Shown here: piece after piece, positions 3,836-11,164 of the stretch | How positions within the stretch are numbered: position 1 is the stretch's first letter | Layout of the letters: each line of letters opens with the position of its first letter | NCBI GenBank assembly: GCA_021204165.1 | Contig: JAJPZU010000112.1 | Span: 1 to 11,574, forward strand | Source: Prevotellaceae bacterium | Lineage (GTDB): Bacteria > Bacteroidota > Bacteroidia > Bacteroidales > Bacteroidaceae | Direction: 5' to 3' | Length of the DNA stretch: 11,574 bases | The notes under the pieces: model-generated | Told to the model about the DNA's origin: nothing | Seen by the model: only the letters and a program-made list of their open reading frames with translations | Database searches by the model: none | Made by a program: the position numbers and the translations under genes

Positions 3836-4424
3836 CTATATTTGGTTATACACTTTCTTCCATCTCAAAACAAAATATAATACGATATCAGAAAGCACAC
3901 TCCGAGAACCGCATGACAAAGCGGACAACTCACGAAAGAATACATATCCCAAGAATACATGAATACACAAAAAACACCGATATTCCATCCCGGAATCTCA
4001 GCAAAACAGTATTCTCAGTATTTTTCCGGCAGCTCTTATTCCCGAGAGCGGCATCTGAACATCGGCATCGGCAGGTCTTCTGACTTCTCCATTGGCAGCA
4101 CGGCCTTCCCAACCACAATTATTTACAGCCTCACGGCAATAACAAAGGTCAGTGGCACAACATGATGATGTGTTGCCATAAAAAACAGGAGTTACAGCTA
4201 CGGGTATAGTTACAGACTCACACTGTATTCCCTCTTAGTCTGTCCGTCTTTCCTGAGTGCTTCTTCCTGAAGTCCGCCATTCCCGAAATCAGATTAGGCA
4301 AATTCCAGTCTCAACAAGCCTCAAATGAAGAGGACAAGAACCAAATGCGCGGCAAAAGTACACATAAAATCCGAATCCATGCACTTTTTACCATATTTTT
4401 ACTCCAAACATTCTATGAAACTCT

Positions 4425-6700: not shown

Positions 6701-6899
6701 ATTCTAATTAGTTTTACGGTTATATAAATCATATTCTGAAATGATATGTCCACCATCTATTTTACAAAGAGGGAACATCCTTAAAAAAAATAACATTACC
6801 AGACTGCATTTTTCATTAAACACTCTCCTTCTCACTGCATTTTCATAATTCATAAAAGACTCCGATTAATTATTTTAATGATAAATGCCAATCTTATAA

Positions 6900-7580
6900 T
6901 TACCATACATATTGCGATGGATATTTTACTTGCATGAAAGTGAAGCCATGCCCCATTACGCTATGGTGAGAAGTCGTCTGTGCTGTCATATTTGATACAA
7001 TACTGCCAAACACCTGCATATTTGCTCTTGCGTCACCGCGTGAAGCAAGAATGGGTGCATCAGGGACATCGTAATCGCGCCATGCAAATAAGCAGACCTT
7101 TTGGGGATATGTCAAGAGATTTACAGCTGTTGTAGATTCTTGAATCAAAACTTCTATCGATTTAAGCATTTGCTGTCTGGCTTTTGCCCGTTTCCCTTCC
7201 GGGTATTTTCCCGTATTAGGCTCAACATATTTTTCCTCATAACAACACAAGTCACAGAATACAACTTTTTCATGTACCATTCCTGTCTCTGTCATTAATA
7301 AATCACATCGGTCTTTAATATTGGCAGTAGTGCCTGCAAATTGTTCGATATACTTTTCAAAACGAACCACAGCAATTTCCTTGCCATTATTATTCACCTT
7401 CAGAACTTCTTTATTGCATTCATTACGGTAAGCCCTTTCAGGCAATTGCTGACATCGTATGCAACTCTTGGAGTCGGTTTCTGAGAAAGGTTCGCGTATT
7501 CTGTAGAGAGGCACTTCTACTTCTTGTGGATTTATGCCATAATGGAGCGGGAATGCCTTTTTAAGAAAAGATTCTATCAT
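6900..7580 (-). CDS. Hypothetical Cys-rich protein that is translationally coupled to the upstream ABC-type ATPase. It is the candidate effector or partner of a two-gene defence-like cassette.
   Basis: 226-aa ORF. Its ATG overlaps the ATPase stop in an ATGA arrangement (7577-7580). It contains CxxC (CIRC) and HxxxxxCDLCC motifs. Composition is AT-rich like the ATPase gene. I recognise no family with confidence; a DUF4276/RloB-type partner is possible but unverified. Confidence 0.6.
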   Translation of the reverse strand: MIESFLKKAFPLHYGINPQEVEVPLYRIREPFSETDSKSCIRCQQLPERAYRNECNKEVLKVNNNGKEIAVVRFEKYIEQFAGTTANIKDRCDLLMTETGMVHEKVVFCDLCCYEEKYVEPNTGKYPEGKRAKARQQMLKSIEVLIQESTTAVNLLTYPQKVCLFAWRDYDVPDAPILASRGDARANMQVFGSIVSNMTAQTTSHHSVMGHGFTFMQVKYPSQYVW

Positions 7581-8737
7581 ACGTCAAGATTTACAAATTC
7601 ATTATAAATGTGACTCATCAACTCTGAGAGGTCGTAAGTATCTACAATCCACCGTCCGCGTTCATTTTGGACAAGCAAATCTTGTATCTCTCCTTCATAT
7701 ATTCGATAAACAGCCGTGTTAGTCCTGCTCAATTGGGCACGTACTGCATTTGTTTGGTTTAGTAAAACATTCAAGTAGTTAAGAATATACGGACTATGGG
7801 TCGCAAGCATCATATTAATTTCTCGATTTTCATCCGCATGTGTTGCCGACAGCACAATTTCTTCTATGAGTTTGCACTGTGCATCAGGGAACAGACTTAA
7901 CTCAGGTTCTTCAATATGGATATATACTTGTTTCTTCAAATCGCTGGGTTCTGCGACAGCCCGAAACTTGTTCAATCTTTCCATATCATACAGATAGTTC
8001 AGGACAGAGCGCTTGAATGCGTCCTTAAATGAAAAGCCATTTGCGCTGGCATAGTTCTTTACAATCAAAGCGACCGATGCTGACGTTTGAATGCCGGATG
8101 AAGCTTCTCGTAAGTCGATTGGCTCATGACGGCTGTCATTTGGAATGACGGTGTAGCGTGTAGGCTTACCTTTGGGGTGGGTTATCTGAAGCTTCATGCC
8201 TATATAGTCCAACGGTATCTCTTTGTCGTTTGCCGATGCTCTGACAAAATCATTGTTTGTTTCATGAAAATAAAATCCCAAGGTTGCACCTGTGTTTTGG
8301 GATGCCTTTTGCGCCCATGTCGGAATGATGTTTCGGTTTTCAGAGATATAGGACACTTTGTTGAACACCAAATGGTCAGAAGATATAATGGGAAGTCTGC
8401 CTAATTTCTTGTTTTCCATCAAGATGGTGTATTCCGTTTCATCATCCATGACTACACTATACCTAATTACACTTGACGAGTCAAGCATTTTATACATTCC
8501 CGTTTCTTTCATCATCGAATCGAAGCGCATCCTGAAAGGAGAGCTTGTTATTTTTGAATGCTTCAAATAAGAACGGATGTTTGCCATTTTGTACAGATAG
8601 CGCATCATGCTTATCAGCTTCATCAGTGTGCTTTTACCACTTGCGGATTCACCAATCAACACAGTGAATGGCAGAAGGCCAAGGTTCTCAATGTGCTTTA
8701 GCGGACCAATATTTTTAATTGTTATAAATTCCTTCAT
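7577..8737 (-). CDS. ABC-type ATPase of the AAA_21/AAA_15 (SMC-like) family with no fused transporter domain. The longest ORF extends to 8815, but the start at MKEFITIKNIG (8737) is more plausible.
   Basis: Walker A GESASGKST at ~8627-8653. An ABC-signature-like SSGIQ motif. A Walker B / D-loop VYIHIEEPELSLFP. An H-loop LATHSPYIL. There is no transmembrane region. GC is low compared with neighbouring genes. Confidence 0.85.
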   Translation of the reverse strand: MKEFITIKNIGPLKHIENLGLLPFTVLIGESASGKSTLMKLISMMRYLYKMANIRSYLKHSKITSSPFRMRFDSMMKETGMYKMLDSSSVIRYSVVMDDETEYTILMENKKLGRLPIISSDHLVFNKVSYISENRNIIPTWAQKASQNTGATLGFYFHETNNDFVRASANDKEIPLDYIGMKLQITHPKGKPTRYTVIPNDSRHEPIDLREASSGIQTSASVALIVKNYASANGFSFKDAFKRSVLNYLYDMERLNKFRAVAEPSDLKKQVYIHIEEPELSLFPDAQCKLIEEIVLSATHADENREINMMLATHSPYILNYLNVLLNQTNAVRAQLSRTNTAVYRIYEGEIQDLLVQNERGRWIVDTYDLSELMSHIYNEFVNLDV

Positions 8738-8956
8738 AATAAAGTTTTGTTTTTCAAACAATCTGATAAAGTATGATTTACCCAATAAAGATACTAATTT
8801 GTACTTCAACAGCAAAAAAAATCCTGTATTGTGACGCTAAAAACGTGAATTTATTACAGAAATGGCACTTTGTCATGTCAAATCAGAAGGTGAAGTGTCA
8901 AAACAGGAGATACAATCCAAACTTATTGTTGCATGAACATCTGGGGCCAGAGCCGC

Positions 8957-9478
8957 CTAATCCTCCAGCCAGTCCTCCGACAAACTGAAGTCCTTGTCCG
9001 CAAACAAGTCCGCCAGCCCGGAAATCTGCTTCAGCCTCAACAGCTCATCCTTGTCCATGCCGATATTGCGCATAATCCACGCATCCGACATGCCCGCAGA
9101 CGTAAGCTCCGACACGATGTGGCTCATCAGCTCTATCGTGTGCGTACCCCTCGCCCTGTTATGACGTATGGTCGAAGCCATTCTGCACGAAATATCCTTG
9201 TCTATCACCGACACGGGAAGCATCCCCTTCTCCCTGTCATAAATTCGTTTCGATGTCTTCATCACCAGATAGCGGTGGAATCCATCTACAATCTCATACT
9301 TGTCCTCGTCCTTCAAGTAATAGCACACGCAAGGCATGGTGTACCCGTCCTCCCATATCGACAGTTCCAACAGCTTCATCTCCGGAGGAGCCACCATGTT
9401 GGGGTTATAATTGTTCGCCACCACTTTCTCGATAGGCACTGCTATCACATTATATACCGGACTCTTAAAATTTTCCAT
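8957..9478 (-). CDS. ibrB: ParB-like nuclease domain protein (IbrB-like).
   Basis: 173-aa ORF with a ParB/Srx-type motif IVDGFHRY (codons ~9272-9286). It overlaps the upstream PAPS-reductase-like gene by 14 bp, which implies translational coupling. Confidence 0.7.
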   Translation of the reverse strand: MENFKSPVYNVIAVPIEKVVANNYNPNMVAPPEMKLLELSIWEDGYTMPCVCYYLKDEDKYEIVDGFHRYLVMKTSKRIYDREKGMLPVSVIDKDISCRMASTIRHNRARGTHTIELMSHIVSELTSAGMSDAWIMRNIGMDKDELLRLKQISGLADLFADKDFSLSEDWLED

Positions 9479-10763
9479 ATTCCAATGCTTTATATTTTCT
9501 CATCACACTTTCTCGTCTGCTCTTCTCATTCTTGGTCAGGGTAAAGCCCATGTACTTACACACATGGTCGTTTCTCAGTATGCAGATGCAGACACGCTTG
9601 AATGTCGGAATCTCCCGAAACTCCGGAATGTCTATGTCGTCAACGTACTCCATCATGACCGGTCTTTTGTTAGTGCGGTATGCCGTGGTCGTCCCAACCG
9701 TAAACTTCACCCCTGCCGCACGCAATTTTTCAATGGTCTCATCGCTCAGACATCCGCCTTTCGTCCTCCAGAATCTCATGCTCACACCTATCTTGTCCAG
9801 ATAATTGCGGCACACCTTCTCCGGCAACGTGTCCAGCAGAAAGTACATGTACTTTTTCCAAGAAAATCCGTGAGGACATTTTATCGACTTCCATCCCATA
9901 GCCGTCGTATTCCCGTAGATGCCGGAAAAATTGACACCATTGACACGGCTGACCATCCGCCCCCACATGTCGGGGTCTATCGCCCGATAGACACTCAGCG
10001 TAGGTATGGCATGAGAAATGAACGGACTTGCCACCCGCTGCCGCCCAATCGGAATGCCCGCACGCGAATAAAGGTCATAAAGCGGATTATAAGTCCATCC
10101 GAATTTTCCGTTTGCCGTCCAGATGTCAGATGTTTTCCAGTCATAAAGCGGATAAGCGTTATACACATGTGCAGCAAGCTTATGTGTCCATTTGTAATGC
10201 GAAAGCCGCCGGTAGTTCTTGGCATTGTGTATGGCCGTCCACCGGTTAAAACTCTCCTGCGTCCTTATGCCTACAAGACAACATATACGTTCACATTTCT
10301 TCCGGTTGCGCAGCCAAGGGGCGAAAAGATACTGGAAGTCATAGTCCCACAAGGCATCAGTGAAGAAATTGAAATCGGCTGCCGTATAAGCCCCCTCAGG
10401 CATTTCCCTCACCCATATATCCTTCTCCGATTCTCCCCAAGGTCTCCAATACGACTGGTGCATGGATGTACAGGTCATGACTTTGAAGGGCACGCAACAA
10501 TGGTACACCTCCAGAATGTCGCGATTCTCCGACAGGGTACGGCGCACATACTCCGTGGTCTGCCGGTACTGCACCTCGTAGTCCATGTGGAACACACCCA
10601 GCTTACGTCCCGGAGCATACCTCCGTATATAGTCTATGCACAGATTCAACAACACTCCGCTGTCCTTGCCACCCGAAAACGAGACATACACATAATCGAA
10701 ATAATCGAATATGATCTTCAGCCTCCTTTGCACTGCTTCATAAACATCAAGTTGCCTAATCAT
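9465..10763 (-). CDS. ibrA: Phosphoadenosine-phosphosulfate reductase family PP-loop protein. It is DndC/IbrA-like, with a PAPS_reduct domain and a C-terminal extension.
   Basis: 432-aa ORF with the PP-loop SFSGGKDS near the N-terminus (~10659-10682). Its size and C-terminal region fit the IbrA/DUF3440-type proteins that pair with ParB-like IbrB. Confidence 0.8.
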   Translation of the reverse strand: MIRQLDVYEAVQRRLKIIFDYFDYVYVSFSGGKDSGVLLNLCIDYIRRYAPGRKLGVFHMDYEVQYRQTTEYVRRTLSENRDILEVYHCCVPFKVMTCTSMHQSYWRPWGESEKDIWVREMPEGAYTAADFNFFTDALWDYDFQYLFAPWLRNRKKCERICCLVGIRTQESFNRWTAIHNAKNYRRLSHYKWTHKLAAHVYNAYPLYDWKTSDIWTANGKFGWTYNPLYDLYSRAGIPIGRQRVASPFISHAIPTLSVYRAIDPDMWGRMVSRVNGVNFSGIYGNTTAMGWKSIKCPHGFSWKKYMYFLLDTLPEKVCRNYLDKIGVSMRFWRTKGGCLSDETIEKLRAAGVKFTVGTTTAYRTNKRPVMMEYVDDIDIPEFREIPTFKRVCICILRNDHVCKYMGFTLTKNEKSRRESVMRKYKALEYGKF

Positions 10764-11164
10764 TCCTTACGTCCTCCGGCATATACCATCTTGTCATAAT
10801 TCTTCCATTCCCTATGTGTCCTGAAGCCGTTGCGTGCAAAGTCAGCCACATGACGCTTGTGTACGACTGCGGTCAGCACAGTCCTGCTCACCGACTCCGC
10901 CACCACCCTGTCGAGCAGAGCATCAATGAGCAAAGAATCGTCGCCCTTGATATAATAATTGTCAATACAGGCTTCACGCTCTTTCTCCTTTACCGGAATG
11001 AATCCGATTACCTCCTTTTTCTCTATGGCCACATACCATTTGTGATGACGGGAGGTCTTGAAGGGATAATTGTTGTTGAGCCTCAACACTGCCGCATTCA
11101 TCACCAGCGGTGCCACCAGCTCATAAAGGCGGGAAGATGTGCCTTCTAAAATCTCAATATTCAT
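10760..11164 (-). CDS. Small protein, possibly with a GNAT-like acetyltransferase fold. It is the first gene of the coupled three-gene operon.
   Basis: 134-aa ORF whose stop overlaps the downstream PAPS-reductase-like gene start by 4 bp. Its beta-alpha pattern is loosely GNAT-like (WYVAIEKKEVIGFI…YYIKGDDSLLIDALLDRV…FARNGF). The fold assignment is tentative. Confidence 0.5.
   Translation of the reverse strand: MNIEILEGTSSRLYELVAPLVMNAAVLRLNNNYPFKTSRHHKWYVAIEKKEVIGFIPVKEKEREACIDNYYIKGDDSLLIDALLDRVVAESVSRTVLTAVVHKRHVADFARNGFRTHREWKNYDKMVYAGGRKE

Follow-up and report, generated by a model that had tools for sequence, protein, structure and literature searches.

A two-gene cassette of Bacteroidales related to the WonAB class, with an ABC ATPase and a predicted, strongly remodelled nuclease

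The stretch of DNA considered here, 11,574 nucleotides of contig JAJPZU010000112.1 of a Prevotellaceae bacterium (assembly GCA_021204165.1; hereafter the window), carries two coupled genes, one for an ATP-binding cassette (ABC) ATPase and one for a Cys-rich protein of 226 amino acids (aa), and raises the question of what kind of system these two genes form. A preliminary description had proposed an undescribed defence pair. The pair is an unrecognised, strongly remodelled branch of the WonAB / PDC-M29 class, so the earlier proposal gives way to homology with that class and holds for novelty at the subfamily level only. The features that are new in the subfamily are a split (D/E)xK motif with K130 as its putative lysine, a likely four-cysteine (Cys4) site, and a C-terminal extension, in a nuclease that is invisible to current models. 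With moderate confidence, we read the cassette as a mobile anti-phage module of two genes that belongs to the WonAB / OLD-type ABC ATPase plus restriction endonuclease (REase)-fold class, forming a Bacteroidales-specific subfamily with a remodelled nuclease. Both open reading frames (ORFs) lie on the minus strand, where the ORF reading of the window placed them at 7577-8815 and 6900-7580, and the layout adopted here is as follows:

7577-8737, minus strand: ABC ATPase, WonA-like / PDC-M29A-like, 386 aa
6900-7580, minus strand: Cys-rich protein, 226 aa, a predicted divergent PD-(D/E)xK-like nuclease of the WonB superfamily
7577-7580, minus strand: ATGA overlap read from the sequence, in which the start ATG of the nuclease gene is overlapped by the stop TGA of the ATPase gene
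8738-8815, minus strand: 5′ extension of the mechanical ORF (TTG start), probably an untranslated leader, judging by homologue lengths and gene callers

WonAB, encoded by the WASA-1 prophage of Vibrio cholerae, is a two-gene abortive-infection system that protects V. cholerae and Escherichia coli from phages (Adams et al. 2025, Nat Microbiol, PMC12137116). WonA is an OLD-type ABC ATPase in which K34, R182, E300, and H333 are essential, and WonB is a PD-(D/E)xK variant whose K71A mutant is dead; upon activation, translation is arrested while genomic DNA is not degraded, and the toxicity of WonB requires active WonA (PMC12137116). Adams et al. see WonAB as a relative of the 'OLD-ABC ATPase + novel REase' operon (Krishnan, Burroughs, Iyer & Aravind 2020), a class of which WonAB is the validated member, and of PD-T4-4 of E. 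coli (Vassallo et al. 2022, via PMC12137116), a two-gene defence system that is presented there as WonAB-related and as combining an ABC ATPase with a small nuclease. The cassette in the window resembles WonAB in being a two-gene operon, in which an OLD-type ABC ATPase is followed by a small nuclease of the PD-(D/E)xK-variant type (predicted here). WonAB is prophage-borne, whereas the family represented in the window is chromosomal in Bacteroidales.

On the ATPase side, Pfam reports the domains AAA_21 and AAA_15, and the predicted model adopts an ABC fold whose nearest solved counterparts are PtuA, Rad50/SMC heads, retron ATPases, AriA, and GajA. The two lines agree and support the earlier reading of a soluble AAA_15/AAA_21 ABC ATPase; the 386-aa protein has no coiled-coil insertion. 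The Walker A, SSGIQ, D-loop, and ATHS motifs noticed previously are all present, at the following residues (386-aa numbering):

8627-8653, minus strand: Walker A, GESASGKST, residues 29-37, with K35
8087-8101, minus strand: signature SSGIQ, residues 213-217
7883-7921, minus strand: Walker B / D-loop IHIEEPELSLFPD, residues 273-285 (IHIEEPE 273-279, with E277)
7790-7804, minus strand: H-loop ATHSP, residues 312-316, with H314

At the Q-loop place stands R135, within ENRNIIP. Walker A, the Arg-type Q-loop, the signature, the Walker B EE, and the H-loop are all invariant in 38 homologues, and the set has its counterparts in WonA (WonA/window: Walker A K34/K35, the Arg in place of the Q-loop R182/R135, Walker B E300/E277, H-loop H333/H314). 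Over its full length, the window ATPase is 47% identical to LB076_RS11680 of Flavobacterium crassostreae, which is hit #71 in Table 5 of Adams et al. (PMC12137116), and 26% identical (E 2e-33) to a Campylobacter ATPase with a canonical WonB-type partner. It differs from WonA in having only local motif similarity to a Bacteroides WonA hit, with shorter inserts in the window protein.

In PADLOC, the best match of the ATPase is the candidate PDC-M29A (2.1e-26, model positions 4-337 of 410), with AriA, NsnB, HEC-01A, and PtuA far behind (AriA models 3e-14). Because the Flavobacterium and Campylobacter ATPases also match PDC-M29A best and canonical WonB proteins match PDC-M29B, PDC-M29 is taken to be the PADLOC name of the WonAB class, with the window ATPase included; a literature search on 'PDC-M29' found nothing. 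PD-T4-4 stands further off: PD-T4-4_A gives a weak partial match to the window ATPase (3.1e-9, C-terminal motifs), and PD-T4-4_B gives none. PARIS and Septu differ in their effectors, AriB being a Toprim and PtuB an HNH protein, neither of which describes the partner in the window, and the window ATPase is smaller than theirs, although PtuA is its nearest solved fold.

The 226-aa partner has no match in Pfam, PADLOC, NCBIfam, or PHROGs, and the PDC-M29B hidden Markov model does not match it either. Its family profiles A1 and A2 returned only noise from PDB sequences (DnaA, ADAMTS-5; E > 0.1), Foldseek against the PDB gave no significant match, and a below-threshold Pfam match to Abhydrolase_8 (E 0.02) was dismissed as noise. 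In agreement with the preliminary description, which had excluded Toprim, classic HNH, and DUF4435 by motif inspection and had named DUF4276 and RloB as candidates to check, there was no Toprim, HNH, PtuB, AriB, or DUF4435 match in Pfam or PADLOC, and no AbiLii, RloB, or DUF4276 match at E up to 1 in Pfam, PADLOC, and NCBIfam. A scan of 76 diverse family members, over which all conservation counts below were taken, found no known family at curated thresholds; two of them weakly matched SduA_C, the Shedu nuclease domain of Pfam.

Profile-profile comparison does place the protein. By hhalign, profile A2 matches the 'Novel REase' LB076_RS11685 of Flavobacterium (96.8%, E 2.3e-10, 169 columns) as well as A4, an alignment of 11 listed WonB / Novel REase sequences that serves as a proxy for WonB of V. 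cholerae A1552 (94.4%, E 8.8e-8). The partner, which had been thought to fit no recognisable effector type, is therefore placed, by a remote match, in a described effector superfamily (WonB / Novel REase). The core signature D...CD...(D/E)L...K...Q of WonB aligns with the small protein, and the predicted catalytic core (7170-7358, minus strand) is composed as follows, with the insertion lying between its last two elements and the secondary structure taken from the predicted model:

7356-7358, minus strand: E75, E or D in 74/76, in helix 74-79; aligned with D44 of A4
7302-7307, minus strand: C92-D93, with D93 in 76/76 at the start of strand 94-98; aligned with C54-D55
7242-7253, minus strand: D110-L-C-C113, with D or E at 110 in 76/76, in strand 105-113; D/E110-L aligned with E70-L
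7170-7193, minus strand: K130...Q137, with K130 in 76/76 at the start of helix 130-146 and Q137 in 75/76 in the same helix; aligned with K72 and Q82

The small protein thus presents conserved acidic residues on helix 1, strand 2, and strand 3 together with a lysine that is displaced from its canonical position, and this family-wide conservation fits a Shedu-type nuclease fold (SduA_C). The contiguous ELKG of A4 is not present in A2; it is replaced in the family by D-L-[C/T]-C, a 17-residue insertion between 'DL' and 'GK', and then G-K, so that the (D/E)xK motif is split and position 112, the expected place of the lysine, is T or C. Judged by the alignment, K130 is the probable catalytic lysine. 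The PADLOC models miss the family, as its effector has moved too far from the profile that was published. WonB proteins measure ~145-170 aa against the 226 aa of the window protein, from which they further differ by its split motif, predicted Cys4 site, and C-terminal extension of ~60 aa, in which R168, F213, F215, Y220, P221, and W226 are conserved.

Cysteines stand at positions 40, 43, 55, 92, 109, 112, 113, and 163, in the patterns C40-x2-C43 and H103-x5-C109-x2-C112-C113 that had drawn attention at the outset. Those of the N-terminal segment are located as follows:

7416-7463, minus strand: C40-x2-C43-x11-C55, forming with C113 (7242-7244) a predicted Cys4 metal site, probably for zinc

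Conservation is high at each of these positions (C40 74/76, C43 67/76, C55 73/76, C113 73/76), and losses are joint: P0228 lacks all four, P0237 three, and P0226 two of them. The loss of C92 is independent of theirs, and this residue is part of the 'CD' motif common to WonB. Because the four cysteines are lost together and are absent from a Flavobacterium homologue that has no insertion, they would appear to form a metal site by which the insertion is anchored on the N-terminal segment. The nucleases of the Cas4/AddB type, in which the four cysteines of the Fe-S 'iron staple' hold a 4Fe-4S cluster at a RecB-like core, offer a likeness in the four co-lost cysteines, but these are spaced differently and the sequences do not match. 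Motif searches that covered part of the supplementary tables of Adams et al. found no Cys-rich member in that part (PMC12137116). The likeness of the cassette to the 'OLD-ABC ATPase + Novel REase' operon lies in the PDC-M29A match of its ATPase, the 47% identity of the latter to LB076_RS11680, and the profile match to LB076_RS11685, and the difference lies in the Flavobacterium partner, in which ELK is contiguous and neither the four cysteines nor the insertion are present. LB076_RS11685, at 200 aa, looks like an evolutionary intermediate, with an N-terminal helix and an overall length class as in the window family.

Small-protein homologues numbered 98 when word-indexed, and an exhaustive profile search yielded 337 representative clusters, nearly all of them standalone proteins of 200-235 aa. 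They are found in metagenome-assembled genomes (MAGs) of Prevotella, Segatella, Alistipes, Muribaculaceae, and Bacteroidaceae. The 48 loci examined came from 37 species genomes, mostly Bacteroidales gut MAGs, and from metagenome contigs; in 48/48 the gene immediately upstream, in the same orientation, encodes an ATPase homologue, even where the identity of the small protein drops to 25%, and the 4-nt overlap of the two genes is retained in most. The neighbouring genes vary between loci and are mostly housekeeping. Since both proteins have many homologues, the two ORFs are real genes and not chance ORFs. Relative to the window, mean identity is 58.6% for the ATPase and 46.3% for the partner, and the partner diverges faster in 42/48 loci, which suggests diversifying selection or effector shuffling. 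In loci L035 and L040, the ATPase is 63-64% identical to that of the window and the partner 30%; with L029 included, the ranges are 63-65% and 30-40%.

Degraded copies occur in L030, L033, and L036, where one of the two genes appears truncated or split and 59-342 nt separate the ORFs, so that the cassette can decay. These three, along with L022, L025, L028, and L040, are pair-bearing bins labelled Clostridiales, Oscillibacter, Oscillospiraceae, Vescimonas, Anaerovoracaceae, Lachnospiraceae, or Azospirillum. All seven come from one 'H076xx cleanbin' project, and the labels could reflect either mis-binned Bacteroidales contigs or real cross-phylum transfer.

In five loci (L012, L013, L014, L037, and L054), the pair is nested in a Mod-[pair]-Res operon (L054:1962-10052), in which an N6_N4 methyltransferase of ~1010 aa, the pair, and a ResIII protein of ~1075 aa follow one another, with intergenic gaps of 12 nt and 4 nt in L054 and an SNF2 helicase upstream in L012, L014, and L054. 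Mod and Res of L037 are only ~46% and 47-49% identical, respectively, to those of the other four; because the layout persists despite this divergence, it is old and stable in that lineage, and it suggests a functional tie of the pair to a Type III-like restriction-modification (R-M) system there. A parallel is provided by PrrC, the anticodon nuclease of the EcoprrI type I R-M locus, where an ABC-type NTPase-linked nuclease function is nested between modification and restriction genes; the five loci show a similar nesting. PrrC differs in being a single polypeptide whose nuclease domain is unlike that of the window family, and most loci of this family, the window included, are not R-M-embedded.

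The mobility of the cassette is seen directly at its site of insertion. Two close relatives, L059 and L060, have an empty site in which ibrB abuts nfeD and both cassette genes are absent, and a 172-bp ibrB-nfeD spacer (L059:5732-5903) occupies the place of the segment delimited here by blastn against both:

6799-8958, no strand assigned: variable (inserted) segment of 2160 bp that contains the cassette

Homology of the window to both relatives breaks at 8959 and 6798, and the flanking NfeD and flotillin are closely shared (aa identity to the window: NfeD 97% and flotillin 100% in L059, 89% and 98% in L060). A search of the segment ends found no terminal repeats and no target-site duplication. 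With the empty sites and their homology breaks on the one hand and the 48/48 pairing on the other, the horizontal insertion between resident genes and the co-conservation of the two genes, both raised in the preliminary description, are upheld. The contrast in guanine-cytosine (GC) content on which it had leaned is real, but far smaller than was estimated: the inserted segment has 39.3%, the cassette genes 40-41%, the neighbouring genes 47-52%, and the flanks 47-48%, that is, ~40% against 47-52% and not 25-38% against 55-62%.

On both sides the neighbouring genes match the earlier description; they comprise a carboxyltransferase/BCCP/biotin-carboxylase (acc) operon, a flotillin gene with one that is NfeD-like, and an IbrA-like PAPS_reduct+DUF3440 gene accompanied by a ParB-like one. 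The resident IbrAB-like genes adjoin the insertion at 8957-11164 (minus strand) and overlap one another; the region holds a 173-aa ParB-like protein, a 432-aa PAPS_reduct+DUF3440 protein with weak BrxP/DndC matches in PADLOC, and a 134-aa GNAT-like ORF. The empty-site relatives have these genes too, which places them outside the cassette. A gene-caller prediction of 49 aa at 6704-6853 (minus strand), between the nuclease gene and nfeD, was also set aside as unlikely to belong to the system: it spans the insertion junction at 6798 and bears no relation to the small ORFs that accompany the pair in other loci. A cobalamin riboswitch (Rfam RF00174, 71.6 bits, 4053-4296, minus strand) lies upstream of the biotin carboxylase/BCCP/carboxyltransferase operon; control of an acyl-CoA carboxylase-type operon by a B12 riboswitch is unusual.

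Within the cassette, the coupling of the two ORFs through ATGA at 7577-7580 is confirmed, on the minus strand, which the preliminary description had left unstated. Its upper limit of 8815 is revised: the ATPase most likely starts at ATG 8737 (386 aa) and not at TTG 8815 (412 aa), because homologues measure 383-387 aa and gene callers give 386 aa on an identical contig. The shorter start is also supported by what we take, by eye and against the -33/-7 consensus, to be a promoter-like site of the Bacteroides type (TTTG at 8816-8813, a 19-nt spacer, and TATCTTTA at 8793-8786), which would lie inside the TTG-extended ORF, 49 nt upstream of ATG 8737 on the minus strand. A sigma-70 promoter scan was no better than shuffled sequence, the sigma-70 model being unsuited to Bacteroidota. 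A search of the cassette for RNA genes found no tRNA and no Rfam RNA.

By analogy with WonAB, the pair would act in defence as follows. The ATPase is expected to dimerise via its ABC head and to form a complex with the small nuclease, which would be held on the C-terminal region of the ATPase; binding and hydrolysis of ATP may then couple detection of an infection cue, the presumed trigger, to licensing of the nuclease. The latter would cut nucleic acid with a PD-(D/E)xK-type site made up of E75, D93, D110, and K130 (plus Q137), while the Cys4 site, probably by binding zinc, would staple the 17-residue insertion to the N-terminal segment. Among possible targets, an RNA connected with translation is the most likely and DNA less so; cleavage of the target would abort infection.

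Several observations weigh against this proposal of a WonAB-type anti-phage module. The small protein lacks the uninterrupted ELKG by which WonB is defined, so that the assignment of K130 is alignment-based; most loci are not in recognisable defence islands; and, unlike prophage-borne WonAB, no member of the family was found in INPHARED phages, PLSDB plasmids, or IMG/VR viral contigs (searched with the A1 profile in the case of viral contigs). The Mod-[pair]-Res loci invite another reading, in which the two genes make up a restriction-like system aimed at DNA, or else serve a Type III-like R-M system as an accessory: the ATPase would load or translocate on foreign DNA and the REase-fold partner would cut DNA directly, without abortive infection, by the logic of McrBC or of Res-associated nucleases. 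We consider this unlikely, as ~40 other loci, the window included, have no adjacent R-M genes, which implies that the pair works on its own, as the ATPase is of the ABC type and not an AAA+ GTPase like McrB, and as WonAB leaves genomic DNA intact and stops translation (PMC12137116). For the lineage in which the pair is nested between Mod and Res, it could instead be a guard of R-M, a Bacteroidales analogue of PrrC/EcoprrI and PARIS. Its ATPase would sense phage anti-restriction factors or a stalled R-M complex and unleash the zinc-stapled, split-motif nuclease on translation RNA, with the insertion and C113 as a switch that holds K130 out until the ATPase acts; we regard this as quite improbable.

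A selfish addiction module of the toxin-antitoxin (TA) kind, in which the ATPase restrains a nuclease toxin and the pair is kept by post-segregational killing, would suit two genes that are translationally coupled, horizontally mobile, and patchily distributed, and it finds some encouragement in the Pfam label of AAA_21 ('putative AbiEii toxin, Type IV TA system') and in the toxicity of overproduced WonB (PMC12137116). It is nevertheless very unlikely: the WonAB nuclease is toxic only with active WonA, which rules out simple sequestration (PMC12137116), no family member was found in PLSDB among plasmids, where addiction modules are common, and the degraded copies indicate that loss is tolerated. 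That the pair is categorically undescribed, with an effector of no known type, is suggested by the silence of Pfam, PADLOC, NCBIfam, PHROGs, and PDB sequence searches on the small protein and of curated thresholds on its 76 relatives, but it is largely refuted, and hence highly improbable, in the light of the profile-profile links to WonB / Novel REase with catalytic residues aligned, the 47% identity of the ATPase to a member published in Table 5, and its best PADLOC match to PDC-M29A. The Rad50, SMC, and RecF heads among the top structural matches of the ATPase would also be compatible with a housekeeping pair for DNA repair or chromosome maintenance, like SbcCD or RecF-type systems. Such a role is hardly credible for a pair that is absent at the same site in close relatives, patchy in distribution, variable in its flanks, and low in GC, whose ATPase lacks a coiled-coil insertion and whose partner is the faster-diverging member in most loci.

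The placement of the cassette in a WonAB-like class brings validated abortive-infection systems of this class to the phylum that dominates human and animal guts. Gut Bacteroidales are poorly covered by defence catalogues, which were built mostly from Proteobacteria and Firmicutes. The placement also provides a natural series for the study of how an ATPase licenses a nuclease, from the canonical ELK through the Flavobacterium intermediate to the split motif with its Cys4 site, and it points to a possible connection in function of such pairs with R-M systems. The family is also relevant to phage therapy and to the ecology of crAss-like phages in the gut.

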